This document shows, one piece after another, positions 8,251 to 46,117 of a stretch of DNA of 53,188 nucleotides; position 1 is the stretch's first letter; every line of letters begins with the position of its first letter. The notes beneath the pieces were generated by a model, which saw nothing but the letters and a program-made list of their open reading frames with translations, searched no databases and was not told the origin of the DNA. The position numbers and the translations under genes are program-made. The stretch is from NCBI GenBank assembly GCA_964424095.1, contig CAYRHE010000001.1:1-53188 (forward strand), in the 5' to 3' direction. The DNA comes from an uncultured Candidatus Peribacteria bacterium. GTDB lineage: Bacteria > Patescibacteriota > Gracilibacteria > Absconditabacterales > Absconditicoccaceae.

Positions 8251-8335
8251 AATCAGATTGATTTTTTTGTTTGGAATAATATCATTTTGTTGTTGGATGC
8301 CTCTTTGGGGTATTTTTATTATTATAAAAAGTAAT

Positions 8336-8602
8336 ATGAATCCATCAACATTGGAAAGTTTGGAGAAAGAAATCAAAGACATAAAAGCAAGAAACAAACG
8401 CGTAGAAGAAGATAAAAAATGGGAAACAAGTTGGATGAGAAAAGCAAGTATAGCAGTTTTGACATATATTGTGATAGTTATATTTTTCTTTTCTGCAGGA
8501 CTAGCAAAGCCGTTTATCAATGCTATTGTACCTACTGTTGGATTTTTGCTATCTACTTTATCATTGGATGCAATTAGGAAATTATGGATGAAGAAAAATT
8601 AA
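8336..8602 (+). CDS. Small membrane protein (coiled-coil plus two TM helices), hypothetical
   Basis: ATG 8336 in the frame of track ORF 8066-8602. The upstream part of that ORF overlaps the recJ 3' end and was discarded. Confidence 0.4.
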   Translation: MNPSTLESLEKEIKDIKARNKRVEEDKKWETSWMRKASIAVLTYIVIVIFFFSAGLAKPFINAIVPTVGFLLSTLSLDAIRKLWMKKN

Positions 8603-8620
8603 TAAGAATAAGATTCTCTC

Positions 8621-8767
8621 GCAATAAAAGATAAATAAAATTCATCCATCATCAAGGCAGTATCATATTTGAAATTATGTTCTAGTTATAATTGTATCGC
8701 TGCTTTTTGGCTACTAACAATGTTGGTTTGGTGATGATTTCCTTCTTTTATTTATTCTTTTTATTGC
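8621..8767. repeat. Long AU-rich hairpin element, copy A (paralog at 46170-46300)
   Basis: 5' arm gcaataaaagataaataaaattcatccatcatcaa pairs with 3' arm ttggtgatgatttccttcttttatttattctttttattgc. Arms are conserved in copy B; the apical part is variable. Confidence 0.5.
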
Positions 8768-8816
8768 TCGATTCTAATCTATCTAATCCAACTAAATCCC
8801 TAAGTTTTAAGAACTA

Positions 8817-8901
8817 AACAATATATAACCATTCACTGTTACATTTTCTTAACGGTAGAAAACACAGGCAAATGTAAGCGTTCACTTGTTATATATTTGT
8901 T
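8817..8901 (+). other. Imperfect 30-nt inverted repeat (structured leader or RNA) upstream of the 8971 gene
   Basis: aacaatatataac...ttacattt pairs with aaatgtaa...gttatatatttgtt. The internal loop carries ttcact on both arms. Confidence 0.35.
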
Positions 8902-8970
8902 TATTATTGTATTGTTCAATTAACCAATAATAAAATACAAACTATAAACTTTTAATTATAAACTAAATAA

Positions 8971-11608: not shown

Positions 11609-11982
11609 GGGGATGTCTCTGGATTTGATAAAGGGACTTCATAATTGATGACAGCCACTACTCGATGAGCGTACCGAGTATACTAATCGTTCAACCAAAA
11701 AATGCTAACGCATCTAAATCTCTTTTAAAGAGAGCTGCTCTTGTTAGTCCTGCTTACGCAGTCTAATTTAGACAGTAACCATCCTGACTGCTGACTCCTT
11801 CTATCTTTCAGGTCGCCCTAAGAAGGAAAACATTATGTTGCTAGGACAAAATGCTCGCCTGTTTATCGGCCAAAGCTTGCCTGTACTAGTAACTTGAAAA
11901 ACCATAGGCCTATAGATAATCTATAGTGGTAGAAATTGTTGATTATGCCTTTTAGACACGGGTTCGATTCCCGTCATCTCCA
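11609..11982 (+). ncRNA. ssrA: tmRNA (SsrA)
   Basis: 5' ggggatg pairs with 3' catctcc, including the G3:U pair. T-arm gggttcgattccc. Discriminator A; CCA is not encoded. Candidate tag ORF 11704-11766: ANASKSLLKRAALVSPAYAV then TAA. Confidence 0.9.
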
Positions 11983-12006
11983 AAAATCTAATTCTGACCT
12001 AATAAG

Positions 12007-23505: not shown

Positions 23506-23610
23506 ATATTATAAATATAAAAACAACTATTTTATATATTTTATATATATAAAATCAAGTGTAAAGATATTTCATCACAACATTTCAGAATTACAGCAAT
23601 TGAATTTAGA

Positions 23611-23772
23611 CATTATCTCCTATATACTATCCAAACACAATCAAAATCTATACTTCTTTCAAGACTCCTCTATTTTCCAGCATCATCCCAAACTCTCAAA
23701 AACTATAAACCTCCTCTAGAATCTCGCTATACTTCCACCCTCAGGGTTCAGAACATAATTCAGTAAGTCCAA
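23611..23772. repeat. Cassette-boundary direct repeat, copy 2 of 3
   Basis: See 14401-14570. Same order and orientation of conserved blocks. Confidence 0.7.
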
Positions 23773-23910
23773 TCACTCGCTATAGAGATACAATTTATCA
23801 TGAGTCCCTATTTTCCTGTCCATGATATTGGACCAAGCGTATTTTTCGTATTCACCGACAAAAAACCCATCAGCACCAAGTTCTTTGTTTTGTGTATCAA
23901 TATCAGACAT
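23716..23910 (-). CDS. Small hypothetical ORF whose 3' end lies in the boundary repeat
   Basis: 64 aa, MSDIDTQNKELGADGFFV...EgLDLLNYVLNPEGGSIARF. Only the C-terminal ~20 aa resemble ORF 14510-14824. Confidence 0.3.
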
Positions 23911-23928
23911 AAACTTGTAAATCAACGC

Positions 23929-26774: not shown

Positions 26775-28166
26775 TTAGAAATCACAAGTTTTTGGAGCTC
26801 TTGGAAAAGGAATAACATCACGAATATTTTCCATACCTGTTATATACATCATCAATCTTTCGAATCATACTCCAAATCAAGCATGAGGAACTGTTCCATA
26901 TTTTCTGAGATCAAGATATCGTCAATAATCTTCTATATTTAGTCACATATCTTTGATTTTTTGTTCCAAAACATCAAGTCTCTCCTCTCTTTGACTTCAT
27001 CAAATAATCTCTCAAACTCCTGGTACTAAAAGATCTGTAGCAGCGACTGTTTTTTTGTCTTCATTGAGTCTCATATAAAACGCTTTGATATCTTTTGGAT
27101 AGTCAGTAACAAAAACTGGTCAATTGTAGATTCTTTCTGAAATATATCTTTCGTGTTCTGTCTGTAAATCAATACCTCGCTCTACAGGATATTCAAATTT
27201 TTGTCCAGATTTTTTGAGAATTTCTACAGCTTGTGTATAGGTAACTCTAGCAAAATCTGAATTTACTAATTTTTGTAATCTGGTTTTCACTTCTGGATTG
27301 ATAAATTGAGCAAAAAAGTCCATTTCTGCATCAGCATTATCCAATATATATTTGAAAGCGTATTTTATTAATCATTCTGCAAGATTCATATCATCATTGA
27401 GATCTGCGAAAGCAATTTCTGGTTCTATCATCCAAAATTCTGAAAGGTGCTTTGTTGTATTACTGTTTTCAGCCCTAAATGTAGGTCAAAATGTATAAAT
27501 TTTACCAAAAGCACATGCAAAAGTTTCTCAATTTAATTGTCAACTTACTGTCAGAGACGTTTCTTTTCCAAAAAAATCTTTGGAATAATCAACTTTCCCT
27601 TCAGGGGTTTTGGGAAGGTTTACCATGTCTAACGTAGAAATTCTAAACATTTCTCATGCTCATTCGCAATCACTTCCTGTAATAATTGGCGTGTGTGCTC
27701 GTATAAATCACTCTTTACGAAAATATTCGTGTATTGCAAAAGCCAATAAACTTCTAACTCTAAAAACAGCTGAAAACGTATTTGATCTTGGTCTAAGGTG
27801 TGCAATTTCACGAAGATATTCGAAGCTATGTCATTTTTTTTGTAATGGATAATCAGTTGGACAACCACCAACAAGAGTTATTTTTGTTGCCTTAATTTCA
27901 AATGTTTGTTTAGCTCATTGAGAAGCTACCAAAACTCATTCGACACTAATAGAAGAACCAGTTGTAAATTTACAAATATCATCAAAATTTGATAAATCGT
28001 TTTCAAATACTACTTGAATATTTTTTAGATAAGATCAATCATTGAGTTCTATAAATCCAAACGTTTTGGAATCTCTTACACTTCTTATCCATCAATTAAT
28101 AGCGATATTTTGATTAAGGAATGATTTATAGTCGCTAAAAATACTCATAATAGCAGTTGTCTTCAT
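26775..28166 (-). CDS. asnS: Asparaginyl-tRNA synthetase
   Basis: ATG 28166, TAA 26775-26777, 463 aa. N-terminus ...[23 protein letters not shown]. C-terminus [20 protein letters not shown]. Confidence 0.9.
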
Positions 28167-28255
28167 ATATCTAAGAGAAAAAAATAAATTACTATTATCT
28201 TATAACGTTTTACTTTTTGAATGCAATATTTTAAAAGATTTTTTGTTTACAATAC

Positions 28256-28902
28256 AAAAAAACCTTAGAAAAAATCTAAGGTTTTAATAAATCTTATCAA
28301 AAGAACAAGGACTTATGAAGATAAACAATGAAATATTACAAATTAATAAAAATATAATAAAACAAAGAAAGGTTTCAAAAGTCCAATATTGAAATAACAC
28401 TATCTTTACTATAATATGAAGATGAATAAACAAACAACATATTTTGCAAAGCAGACCTTTTTATCTTTAATCTTTTGTCTGATATTTCTTTTTTGAGAAA
28501 TATAATATTTGCAATAAAGAATAAATCTTTAAATAGTCTGAATAAACAGAAATATCAAAATATAATATACCAAACAATAAATAAAACATAAATCAATCCT
28601 AATGTAAGAAAATCCAATAAAGAATAAAACAAACATAAAGAATAAATTCAGAATTTAATTATTTGCATGATATAATGGTATAAATCAAATCTAGATAATA
28701 ATCAATTTAACTAAACCCAAAGAGAATAATTAATTTGAAATACCGATAGAAATAATAAACACCAAATTATAAACTAAATTTTAATAATAAAATCAGAATA
28801 TAAATTACATAAGATACAAAAATAGTTTAATCAATTTGTTCTATGATAAAGATCCAACATCATACAGATATCAATTTTTTACAATCAACATCTTTTGATG
28901 AC
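28256..28902 (-). ncRNA. Large candidate non-coding RNA, locus X (paralog of 44903-45526)
   Basis: Promoter TTGACA-16-TATACT upstream; terminator hairpin 28262-28282 plus U-run. Shares exact blocks of 25 nt (28831-28855) and 23 nt (28290-28312) with locus Y. Has no ORF conserved in Y. Confidence 0.5.
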
Positions 28903-28908
28903 AGTATA

Positions 28909-28936
28909 AGTATAATCGATTTTTTTTATTTGTCAA
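28909..28936 (-). promoter_or_regulatory. Consensus sigma70-type promoter of locus X
   Basis: Minus strand TTGACA (28936-28931), 16 nt, TATACT (28914-28909), followed by TATACTGTCATCAAAAGATG as in locus Y. Confidence 0.55.
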
Positions 28937-31661: not shown

Positions 31662-32741
31662 TTATAAAGGACAATCCAAACCATCATAAGGCCAACACAT
31701 TTGATGTGTTGCATGACAATAGTGGTTAACAGGACATTGTGAAGTACTTGTACAAGCTCAACATGGACCAACATTTTGGTCATCACACCAACCATTTGAT
31801 TGCCAACCATTTGTTGTACAATCGGCTTTATGATCTCAAAGACCACAAATATGTGCTCAAATTGTATTTGTATTATGACATTTTCCAAGATATGTTTTTG
31901 TAGTACATATAAAGTCAGTTGTTTTACAAGTATATCATTGCTCAACTACACATGATTCATACAAATAACTACCATTTAATGCTCAATTAAGACATTGCCT
32001 TTGTTGAGATACACAACTACTTCATTCTGATACTACTGGAGACTGATAAGCATCAACGCAATCACCATGTTGAATATATGTTGTAGCAGACCATGGCAAA
32101 GAACATTTTGTAGTACATGTTGATGAAGAAGAATGACAAGCTGCTGTTCATCAAATACCAGATGTATCTGTTATTGGTGTTCATCAACTATACCAAAAAC
32201 GCCAAGTCGAGTCTGAACCGTTACATACCGCTTTGTATGTCCATTGACTTGATCGATTACATGGATCAGAATATTTTTGAAACAACCTAACTTCTGCTCA
32301 TGAATTATGACATCAACATATTTGACTATTTGTATTTTGATAATAGATTTGCTTTCATAAAGCAGTTCTTAAACTAGATTCCGAACATTTACCAGCAGAA
32401 CAAATAGCACTTCAACAAGATACTGGACAATCATTTAAAGTAATATTTGACGGTTTATTATTACGAAAAGCTGTATATTCTGCAGATGTTTTTGTGGGAA
32501 CAAAAAGTCCTGTATCTGTTGTTCATCAATATCTTCTACAAACTCAATACTCATAAATATTGGATATAATTGTTGTGGAGTCATTTCATGCGGAATTCAA
32601 AGAAATTGCGGTTTTATTTGTTGATAATTTGTATCACCAATTTCATTGATTACTTGTTTGAGCATACAAAAATCAAGCTACAGATATAACAAGAAATCAA
32701 ATAATAAATAAAAAACTTTTATTCGTTTTTACTTTTCTCAT
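31662..32741 (-). CDS. Cysteine-rich secreted protein
   Basis: ATG 32741, TAA 31662-31664, 359 aa with many TGA=Gly. Signal peptide MRKVKTNKSFLFIIgFLVISVAgFLYAQ. More than 30 Cys. Confidence 0.6.
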
Positions 32742-36622: not shown

Positions 36623-38092
36623 ATGTCAAATAATCAAAACCCTGTTATTCTTCGTTTTGATGATGTGTCTTTTGCTTATAATGATGGAAAACATCCTATT
36701 TTGATAGAAAGTAGTTTCTCTCTTCGTCAAAACACCAAAATAACTATTATGGGACAGAATTGAGCTGGAAAATCAACAATTTTTAAAATGATTACTTGAG
36801 AACTAACACCCCAATCTGGTAAAATAAATATCGTAAATGGAAATACTATTGCTATTGCAAGACAAGTAATCCCAAGAGAACAATTGGATCTTACAATTAA
36901 AGAGTTTTTTGAAACTGCTTTTGAAGAAAAAGACTATCAAATAGATAGAAAAATTGCTGAAGTTTTGAAAGCTGTAAATTTCAACGCACCAACAAACAAA
37001 CCAATAAAAGAATTTTCTGGATGACAACAAGCTAGATTATTGTTGGCATACGCAATGATTCAACATCCTGATATTCTTTTGCTTGACGAACCAACCAATA
37101 ACCTTGATAAGACAGGTATTGGTGATTTGATTAGTTTTTTGATGGCATATGATAAAACTGTTGTGGTAATTAGCCATGATGCTGATTTTCTTAATCTTTT
37201 TACTGATGGAGTATTATATCTCAATAAAATGCGTTGCCAGGTTGAACAATACTGGGGAGATTATTATGATGTAGTAGAACAAATTGCTGCACAAATAGAA
37301 AAAGAACAAATGCAAAATGCTAGAGCTGAAAAAAAAATTGCTGACGCCAAAGAAAAAATCAACTTCTTCTCAAATAAGTGAGGTAAAATGCGTAAATTGG
37401 CTAGTAAAATGAGAGATGAAGTAGAAGAAGCAGAAGATAATATTGTAGAAGTAAGAAAAGATGATAAAACTATCAAAGAATTTATTATTCCTTTTGAAAA
37501 TTATGTATGACCTATTGTATCGATAAACAAAATCTGACTTATGAACTCTTCTCACGAAGTTGTGACGCATAAGTTACCACTTGTTATTAAAAAAAATCAA
37601 AGATACATCCTTTCTGGACCAAATGGTATCGGAAAATCTACGCTTCTCAAAAAGTTGGTTAATTCTCATGACAATGATGCTATGATTCATGAAGATGTAA
37701 GAGTTGGTTATTATAGTCAAGATTTTAATGCTTTGGATATGGAAAAAGTAGTATGGGATGATCTTCGTGAAGTTGCTGGAGATATGACAGATCAAGATAT
37801 TTATCGTGTTGCTGCACAATTTTTACTTACAGGTGGTTTACTCAAAAATACTATTGGTTCTCTTTCTGAAGGACAGAAATGACTCCTCTGTTACGCAAGA
37901 TTTGTCCTCCAAAAACCGCATCTCCTCATCCTTGATGAACCAACGAATCATATAAACTTTCGTCACCTTCCTGTGATATCTCAGTCCTTGAATAAATATC
38001 AATGAGCAATGATTATGGTTAGTCATGATGAAGTTTTTGTTAATCAATTAGATTATTTAGAAAAAGTAGATTTAGGTAAATTAATCAATTAA
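36623..38092 (+). CDS. ABC-F family ATPase (two ABC domains, no TM domain)
   Basis: ATG 36623, TAA 38090-38092, 489 aa. GQNgAGKST, FSGgQQARL, LLLDEPTN, second Walker A GPNGIGKST. Confidence 0.85.
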
Positions 38093-44677: not shown

Positions 44678-44867
44678 AATATATCAAACAAAATCATTAC
44701 GATTTCCCCATATTTTGATAAAAAATATATGTAATTAGTGATTTTTAATAAAAAAATGATTAAAAATTAAAATAAAATTAATTTCTCAAAAAAATTATAA
44801 ATACAAGGCTAATAAAACCAGCTTCAAAAGCTACATATCAAAAAGATAAAAAAAAGTCATCAAAAAT

Positions 44868-44896
44868 TTGACAAATAAAACATTTTCGTGTATACT
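44868..44896 (+). promoter_or_regulatory. Consensus sigma70-type promoter of locus Y
   Basis: TTGACA (44868-44873), 17 nt, TATACT (44891-44896). Confidence 0.6.
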
Positions 44897-44902
44897 TATA
44901 TT

Positions 44903-45526
44903 GTCATCAAAAGATGAAGGGTGTTAAAACCTTATTGTCTGATGGTGTAGGATCTTTATCATAGAACAAATTGACCTCTGTACTGTTTTTGTGTCATTTG
45001 TATATTAATATATTTCTTTTTTGTGCTAGCTAGCTGGTTTGAAAAGGACTTATATTCTTTGATTTCTATTCTCTCCTTTTGGTTTGATTGTGTTGATCTT
45101 TAGATTTACCTTTGGTTTGTCTTTGGATTAATATATTCTGATCTTTTGGTTTGTTTGGATTATCATTTATACTTTTTGATACTTTGTATGTTTAAACTAG
45201 TTTTGGATATACAAGCTGTTTAGGACTTCTGTCCTCTTACAAATACTGTATTTCTTTGCAAAAAGAGATATCAGGCACAAAATTAAAGATTAAACCGCCT
45301 GCTTTGTAAAATATATTGTTGGATAAAACCTGCTTTATATTATAGTAAAAATAGCACTCGATCAATATAGGACTTGTGCATTCTTTGTTTTGTTTTATTG
45401 TGCTTGATTTAACTTACCTTTGGTATTTTATATCTTGTATAGTATTACATTGGTTTATCATCACCTGTCCTTGTTCTTTTGATAAGATTCAAAAGGACCT
45501 TGGAAGATTCTTCTAAGGTTTTTTTC
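44903..45526 (+). ncRNA. Large candidate non-coding RNA, locus Y
   Basis: About 620 nt between a consensus promoter and a 10-bp-stem terminator. No ORF longer than 16 codons on either strand, even with TGA=Gly. U/G-rich with multiple hairpins. Paralogous to locus X. Confidence 0.55.
45497..45526. terminator. Strong intrinsic terminator shared by locus Y (+) and engB (-)
   Basis: accttggaag-att-cttctaaggt (one G:U pair) followed by TTTTTTT on the plus strand. Confidence 0.7.
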
Positions 45527-46117
45527 TTATTGTAAAATTTTTTCTATTTTATCCAAAAGATTATCTTTCCCCCTACCTTTGATACTAGATGTCATAATAA
45601 AATTTGGTTTATTTCAAAAATATTTTTCGTACATATTTTGCAGCGCTATTGTGTTTTTATATAAATCTTTCTGATTACTTTTATCTGTTTTTGTTATAAT
45701 AATTTCAAAAGGAATTTGATCTTCTTTTAGTACTTTCATAAATTCAAAATCAATTGTTTGTGGCTGTATAGATCAATCAACAAGAACAAAAACGACTTTT
45801 AATGAGGGTCTTTGTGTAAGAAATTCTTGCATGGTATCCATCCAATCTATTCTTTGCTTTTTACTATATTTTGCATATCAATATCCGGGAAGATCAACCA
45901 AGTATCGACTTTTATTTATCAAAAAATAATTCAGCAATTGGGTTTTACCAGGAGTTACAGAAGATTTTGCAAGCTGTTTGCGTTGGGTAAGCATATTTAT
46001 CAATGAAGACTTTCATACGTTGGACCTCCCTACCAACGCAAATTCTGGATATTCTGCTGGAGGACATTCTGATAATTTGGAAGCACTTTTAATAAACTGG
46101 GCTGAGGTTATAATCAT
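45527..46117 (-). CDS. engB: Ribosome-biogenesis GTPase EngB (YsxC/YihA)
   Basis: ATG 46117, TAA 45527-45529, 196 aa. GRSNVgKSSLIN, DLPGYgYA, TKTD. Confidence 0.85.

Follow-up and report, generated by a model that had tools for sequence, protein, structure and literature searches.

Two loci, X and Y, in a 53,188-nt stretch of DNA from an uncultured Candidatus Peribacteria bacterium (the window, hereafter) are diverged copies of one large unit, and we put at about 0.78 the probability that X is an independent, functional, structured non-coding RNA gene of a new family. The comparisons support that the copies are homologous and share one architecture, that their fold covaries and is unusually stable, that no ORF is conserved, and that the RNA is independent of its neighbouring genes. 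Judged from sequence comparison the RNA family is new, with no relative among 4227 Rfam families, and we infer that its RNA is expressed and acts in trans as a stable folded molecule.

Two diverged copies in one genome segment

The window has a G+C content of 28.6% and uses genetic code 25 (TGA read as glycine), for example in the genes at 36623-38092 and 45527-46117. The P-loops GQNGAGK and GRSNVGKSS emerge only when TGA is translated as glycine, which identifies the code and makes the host an Absconditabacteria- or Gracilibacteria-type organism, and ORF calling with table 11 breaks the genes of the window into fragments. The only Rfam matches in the window are a tmRNA and a partial tRNA (Table 1); two long gaps in which no code-25 ORF reaches 100 codons, at 8251-8970 and 23506-23928, gave no Rfam match at the gathering score.

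A preliminary description of this DNA, made from the sequence alone, had read X as a second, diverged copy of the RNA at Y. In a MAFFT alignment positions 28936 to 28256, read on the minus strand, are indeed collinear with 44868 to 45525 on the plus strand, the similarity beginning about 60 nt ahead of the −35 element and running through the terminator. Both exact blocks that had been listed are found, the 25-nt block GGATCTTTATCATAGAACAAATTGA at 28831-28855 (minus) and 44950-44974 (plus) and the 23-nt block GTCCTTGTTCTTTTGATAAGATT at 28290-28312 (minus) and 45467-45489 (plus), and the longest exact word shared by X and Y is 25 nt as compared to a mean of 11.1 and a maximum of 16 in 100 shuffles. 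The common promoter module that had been proposed is also there, TTGACA and TATACT being separated by 16 nt in X and 17 nt in Y; each copy scores 11/12 against the consensus and is the top promoter-like match of its region, and an A-rich stretch upstream of the promoter is common to both loci. Each region has a single terminator-like site (0.1 expected). Since there is one promoter and one terminator per locus the predicted transcripts are bounded, at 647 nt for X and 623 nt for Y; the ends of X were set from the promoter, the terminator and the alignment. In the alignment both the promoter and the terminator are kept in all homologs.

The hairpin change to which the preliminary description had drawn attention is likewise real. 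CAGAC pairs with GTCTG in X (28477-28481 with 28452-28456) and CAGGC with GCCTG in Y (45272-45276 with 45297-45301), an A-U to G-C compensatory change. In all, seven consensus pairs differ on both sides between X and Y and still pair, this one included. In two relatives (L002 and L022) the hairpin has changed again, to CAGAU/AUCUG. The descriptions of the adjacent hairpin and of both terminators hold too. On sequence grounds X is a real second paralog, and the interpretation of X as a structured non-coding RNA is supported.

Table 1. Features of loci X and Y and of their surroundings in the window
Feature	Position	Strand	Details
tRNA, 3' part	1-48	plus	cut by the window start
tmRNA	11609-11985	plus	tag peptide ends AALVSPAYAV
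AsnRS-like gene (asnS)	26775-28166	minus	Pfam tRNA-synt_2 and anticodon OB fold; class II aaRS
Spacer from X to AsnRS-like gene	28167-28255	minus	89 nt; weak promoter-like sites only
X RNA	28256-28902	minus	predicted 647 nt, GUCAUCAAAAGAUG ... terminator U-run
X intrinsic terminator	28256-28288	minus	AAAACCUUAGA-UUUUU-UCUAAGGUUUU and U-run
P2, 3' strand	28289-28307	minus	UGUUCUUUUGAUAAGAUUU; within exact 23-nt block
P8 around variable arm V2	28308-28385	minus	GGAC../..GUCC; P8 conserved
P3, 3' strand	28388-28408	minus	UAAAGAUAGU ... UCAAU; in consensus fold and single-sequence folds
Central domain P5-P6(a,b)-P7	28409-28534	minus	covariance model R1 107.2 bits, E = 4e-21 (partly circular, X being in the model)
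P6b	28452-28481	minus	hairpin of the preliminary description
P6a	28482-28503	minus	hairpin of the preliminary description
V1 variable arm	28551-28816	minus	long irregular hairpins closed by GURUC/GAUAY
P3, 5' strand	28817-28835	minus	AUUGA ... ACUAUUUUUG; long-range partner 28388-28408
P2, 5' strand	28837-28855	minus	GGAUCUUUAUCAUAGAACA; within exact 25-nt block; partner 28289-28307
P1, 5' hairpin	28858-28900	minus	conserved GUAAAA-type loop
X promoter	28909-28936	minus	−35 TTGACA 28931-28936, 16-nt spacer, −10 TATACT 28909-28914
Y promoter	44868-44896	plus	TTGACA-17-TATACT; 11/12 against consensus, top of region
Y RNA	44903-45525	plus	predicted 623 nt; paralog of X
Y central domain P5-P7	45218-45345	plus	model R1 147.8 bits
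Y intrinsic terminator	45491-45525	plus	16-bp stem
engB	45527-46117	minus	convergent with Y; stop codon one base from Y end

Distribution among relatives

Relatives of X and Y come from seven other assemblies. When one genome per species was scanned with a 20-mer taken from the 5' block, both loci were recovered in the sister MAG STD2_163 (Candidatus Absconditabacteria bacterium), the nearest public genome (L001, the X ortholog, 99.6% identical, and L003, the Y ortholog, 92.6%). Three other MAGs each gave a single Y-type locus (L002, L004 and L005; 81-87%). A pattern scan of metagenomes returned 15 loci, of which L010 alone is real; the other 14 are chance matches in coding DNA. Because Y-type copies always lie beside engB, a graded series of EngB homologs was used to fetch more contigs, and this walk yielded the divergent members L022 (685 nt, EngB 74%), L026/L027 (590 nt) and L034/L035 (507 nt), giving the family a size range of 507-685 nt.

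The Y-type loci L002, L003, L004, L005, L010, L022, L026/27 and L034/35 are all tail-to-tail with engB, and this position is kept from 74% to 98% EngB identity. L021, L028 and L036 (EngB 79-80%) lack the RNA after engB, where the next gene directly follows, and L023, L024/25 and L030-33 (EngB 65-68%) lack it too. In two of these RNA-less relatives an IS200-type Y1 transposase directly follows engB (L032 2674-3120, L033 2674-2913) and occupies the usual position of Y. In 167 kb of sequence neither nhmmer nor a covariance model built on the central domain found further members. The central-domain model did return a marginal match at 32428-32515 (minus; 19.5 bits, E = 0.4), which lies inside a coding gene and is most likely noise.

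X-type copies are found in the window and in the sister MAG STD2_163 only, and one distant relative, whose locus was reached via the neighbouring permease, lacks an X-type copy. Over 362 gap-free columns X shares 70-73% identity with each of the other members, and so does L022. Such uniform distances suggest that the split between X and Y is old, or that X evolved fast and was then held constant. So far the sequences place the family, which is narrow and patchy, in only a sub-clade of code-25 Absconditabacteria-type bacteria. The full-text literature yielded no report of a structured non-coding RNA for Absconditabacteria, Gracilibacteria or CPR bacteria.

X has the elements that define the new family, namely its own promoter, P1, P2/P3, the P5-P7 core and the terminator. 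Its score against the nhmmer family profile (E = 1.6e-88) is partly circular, as X itself is in the profile, and the same holds for its score against covariance model R1.

A conserved fold with compensatory changes

Ten distinct sequences, six of them 83-99% alike, were aligned and folded with RNAalifold. The consensus has 113 pairs, 17 of them with double changes, and is arranged as a 5' hairpin (P1), the long-range helices P2 and P3, the variable arm V1, a central domain of P5, P6 (P6a and P6b) and P7, the helix P8 with its variable arm V2, and the terminator; X and Y folded separately give the same core.

Several comparisons support this fold. First, 97.1% of consensus cells are paired, as compared to 47-51% when partners are slid, and the covariation score is 0.175 against 0.06. 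Second, the 17 double-change pairs compare with 2-5 in the slid controls and with 6.8 ± 1.7 in column shuffles, which ignore relatedness and of which none in 500 reached 17. Third, to avoid circularity we projected the minimum free energy (MFE) fold of Y alone onto the alignment: 88.8% is paired (44-49% in slid controls) and 43 pairs show double changes (16-23 in slid controls). The preliminary claim that X is a diverged copy conserving structure has thus been strengthened in its covariation by the addition of homologs. The RNAs are also unusually stable relative to dinucleotide shuffles, with MFE z-scores of −5.2 to −9.0 in eight members (X, −144.6 kcal/mol, z = −8.3; Y, −173.6 kcal/mol, z = −9.0).

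The double changes are spread over several helices. In P1, which is an 11-bp helix when X is folded alone, both sides of pairs 16:34, 18:32 and 19:31 have changed between X and Y. In the central domain they affect all five pairs of P5, 467:536 and 468:535 of P6, 503:527 and 504:526 of P6b and 544:565 of P7, and P8 has one (611:700). The loop of P6b holds an invariant AUUA, and the loops of the central domain are A-rich.

P2 is a 17-19 bp long-range helix that joins the 5' and 3' blocks, with a duplex energy of −15.8 kcal/mol in X and of −13.5 to −17.0 kcal/mol in the ten sequences. Eight of the ten sequences have an identical 5' strand, L026 and L034 being the exceptions. Because P2 and the greater part of P3 are almost invariant, the support for these helices is thermodynamic. 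We considered the altered P2 of L034 as proof of covariation and rejected it, as cross-combinations of the strands are as stable as the native pair. An alternative pairing of the leader with the 3' block (AUCAAAAGA/UCUUUUGAU) was rejected as well: L034 keeps the leader and has lost that 3' sequence, which favours local pairing in P1.

As aligned, 14 of 106 consensus pairs are unformed in X; several of these are, on the modelled fold, alignment-register artefacts in P1. Natural deletions follow helix boundaries, L026 lacking exactly P7, L022 lacking V2 and L034 lacking most of V1. V1 aligns poorly and is 266 nt long in X and 210 nt in Y.

Two further ideas were discarded. For a repeat sponge, tandem-repeat and k-mer analysis found no tandem array in the U/G-rich arms; CUUUG(G) and AAGAU(U) are enriched, in counts that are confounded by homology. 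CsrA-type binding was rejected because the GGA motifs are in stems, not loops.

Is the element a mobile or decaying sequence?

A different account would make X a non-functional or decaying duplicate, or the whole element MITE-like, its ends being terminal inverted repeats at the level of DNA and not the strands of an RNA helix. The 5' block and the 3' block form an imperfect inverted repeat of about 20 bp, the RNA comes and goes among close relatives, X-type copies are from one lineage only, some consensus pairs do not form in X as aligned, and there is the IS200-type transposase after engB in two relatives. However, homology reaches beyond the repeats, as far as the promoter on one side and the terminator on the other; unlike the ends of a MITE or non-autonomous IS, the inverted blocks lie within a larger homologous unit. 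We saw no target-site duplications, and there are two copies in the 53-kb window and one per locus elsewhere. A position beside engB that stays constant over such a range of EngB identity is unlike that of an active mobile element, and for hairpins inside the unit to change in a compensatory way there must be selection on RNA. X itself keeps its 11/12 promoter, an intact terminator and a z-score of −8.3, and it is the most conserved stretch of its own neighbourhood between strains. We consider decay or mobility unlikely to account for X.

Independence from asnS

The genes near X and Y encode a permease-like pair, an AsnRS-like protein, EngB, a P-type ATPase and a Na/Ca exchanger, and the sole conserved adjacency is that with engB. 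The preliminary description had placed asnS about 90 nt beyond the end of X and given it a candidate promoter of its own. The distance stands; as for the promoter, the spacer offers weak candidates only, such as TTCAAA-16-GATAAT, which scores 9/12.

This arrangement, an RNA that ends in an intrinsic terminator just upstream of a co-oriented aaRS gene whose spacer has weak promoter-like sites only, is the layout of T-box and other attenuation leaders, and X could on that basis be a cis-regulatory leader of asnS (a long 5' UTR, T-box-like or an attenuator), with Y a decaying duplicate of it. Several observations make this quite improbable. Y-type copies are the widespread and conserved ones, and in none of the eight loci is there a co-oriented downstream gene, each copy facing the 3' end of engB. 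Y abuts the engB stop codon on the opposite strand and so cannot be a leader, and being convergent with engB it has no downstream gene to regulate. The idea that X is simply the asnS 5' UTR and Y its decayed copy, which the preliminary description had named as a possible refutation, accordingly fails.

The Rfam searches agree: neither the T-box model (RF00230) nor any other leader family matches X at E ≤ 10, RF00230 is also without a match over Y at that threshold, and the leader matches that do occur (His_leader, trpB and rli53; E 0.11-8.4) are over Y only and cover little beyond the terminator hairpin. Compared to aaRS leaders the X/Y RNA is two to three times longer and has a conserved paralog and orthologs that are upstream of no gene. 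An alternative antiterminator pairing with the terminator arm is not evident in X, and at the permease pair of the distant relative without X-like sequence the AsnRS-like gene is absent as well.

Finally, X and the body of asnS do not share a history. When the window is compared with STD2_163, identity is 99-100% over X, 93-97% over its flanks and 71-79% over the asnS body; for Y it is 90-95% and for engB 71-90%. These values, together with its own strong terminator, set X apart from asnS. The low-identity stretch of asnS spans 26786-27985 of the window in the comparison with L001 and is flanked by sequence, X included, of 93-100% identity; from this pattern the asnS body looks like an allelic replacement by recombination between close strains.

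Coding potential

We found no conserved ORF in any of the six frames of the ten sequences under code 25. A 110-codon ORF (28336-28668) is present in X only and is a by-product of 50% U content. A 16-codon ORF running from nt 12 to the TAG of the invariant 5' block is shared by X and Y of the window; elsewhere it has ATA for ATG (L002/L004), a frameshift (L026) or an early stop (L034).

These frames bear on whether the loci are structured mRNAs for small hydrophobic peptides, after the model of the type I toxin hok. At 45-50% U the open frames of the RNA, the 110-codon ORF of X among them, encode hydrophobic strings, the long-range pairing of the 5' and 3' ends resembles that of hok mRNAs, and X and Y of the window have the 16-codon ORF in common. 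Against this, none of the ORFs has its start, its frame and its stop preserved in all ten sequences: the long one is confined to X, and the short one lacks its start codon in two species, has a frameshift in a third and is cut short in a fourth. Indels are not multiples of three, and an antisense RNA partner is not evident. A peptide-coding function is in our judgement very improbable. A long, nearly perfect helix joining the ends is found in hok-type mRNAs and in rRNA processing stalks alike, but X and Y have neither rRNA similarity nor a conserved ORF; by analogy with these systems, the end-joining helix could be cut by RNase III or could clamp and stabilise the RNA.

Comparison with known large RNAs

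To our knowledge, few classes of bacterial non-coding RNA exceed 500 nt. Rfam 15 gave no relevant match over X or Y at the gathering threshold or at E ≤ 10, and none over five homolog loci at E ≤ 1; models for RNase P, SRP, 6S, tmRNA and rRNA found nothing over X or Y.

By analogy, the nearest in kind (large, ornate and orphan) appear to be OLE, ROOL and GOLLD. OLE RNA (RF01071) is about 600 nt long, occurs in anaerobic or extremophilic Firmicutes and forms a membrane RNP with OapA/B/C (PMC9723947, PMC12265935). X and Y are like it in size, as stand-alone genes, in having many helices, in interspersing conserved with variable parts, and in being noncoding with an orphan biochemical function. 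They differ from it in that its covariance model does not match (X and Y at E ≤ 10, the five homolog loci at E ≤ 1), in that no gene of the oapA/oapB type is adjacent to X or Y, where the neighbours are unconserved except for the convergent engB, and in belonging to a different phylum, with far lower G+C and two paralogs per genome.

ROOL and GOLLD are large ornate RNAs of Firmicutes and phages that form RNA-only homo-oligomeric cages (PMC12286853). Shared with them are a length above 500 nt, long-range helices that join the ends, variable arms around a conserved core and an orphan function, but X and Y do not match their models at the gathering score or at E ≤ 10. The genomic surroundings were compared as well. 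ROOL and GOLLD are frequently found in phage or prophage context and in tRNA clusters. IMG/VR scans with both invariant blocks yielded 19-mers that occur by chance in coding DNA and nothing else, a blastn search of 50,697 phage records gave nothing for the X/Y family, and there is no tRNA near X or Y.

A possible role

As predicted from sequence, each copy would be transcribed on its own, from a near-consensus sigma-70-type promoter to an intrinsic terminator. Once P1 has formed, the invariant 5' block would zip to the invariant 3' block to give the closing helix P2, which P3 would continue, P2 and P3 together clamping a multi-arm body end-to-end. That body would consist of the conserved central domain and P8, with V1 and V2 free to expand, shrink or vanish between lineages. 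Candidate interaction surfaces are the loops of P1 and P6b together with the stalk formed by P2, and V1 and V2 would be tolerated expansions. The invariance of the P2 sequence suggests, speculatively, sequence-specific recognition or processing, for instance by RNase III. X and Y may be isoforms that present common P1, P2 and P6 surfaces on different arms.

By analogy with the large RNAs above, a role as a protein-binding scaffold or RNP core has something approaching an even chance of being right. A more far-reaching proposal, drawn from the same analogy and decidedly tentative, is that this would be the first large ornate-type RNA class specific to candidate-phyla-radiation bacteria, an abundant, trans-acting, P2-clamped RNP or higher-order RNA assembly in which the paralogs provide alternative arms and which is tied to a reduced, episymbiotic biology. 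Genomes of Absconditabacteria and Gracilibacteria are about 1 megabase in size, so that two copies of about 0.65 kb would be a large investment in a single RNA.

The family has clear boundaries and a testable secondary structure, and natural deletion variants mark the arms that are dispensable. If the RNA is expressed and functional it would add to the short list of orphan large RNAs, and would do so as a two-paralog system in which a common core and divergent arms can be compared.

Two short motifs deserve mention. The palindrome GCUAGCUAGC lies in the V1 arm of Y (45024-45033); it is kept in L003, L010 and L002, nearly so in L026, and does not occur in X, L004, L005, L022 or L034. The simplest model makes it a hairpin tip. 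Y has two copies of the 10-nt motif GTCATCAAAA, one at the predicted transcript start (44903-44912) and one about 50 nt upstream (44854-44863), centred near −45. The upstream copy is partly conserved in homologs and reads GTCACTAAAA in X, where the counterparts of the two copies are at 28946-28937 and 28902-28893. From its sequence and placement, this repeated motif could be an operator-like repeat.
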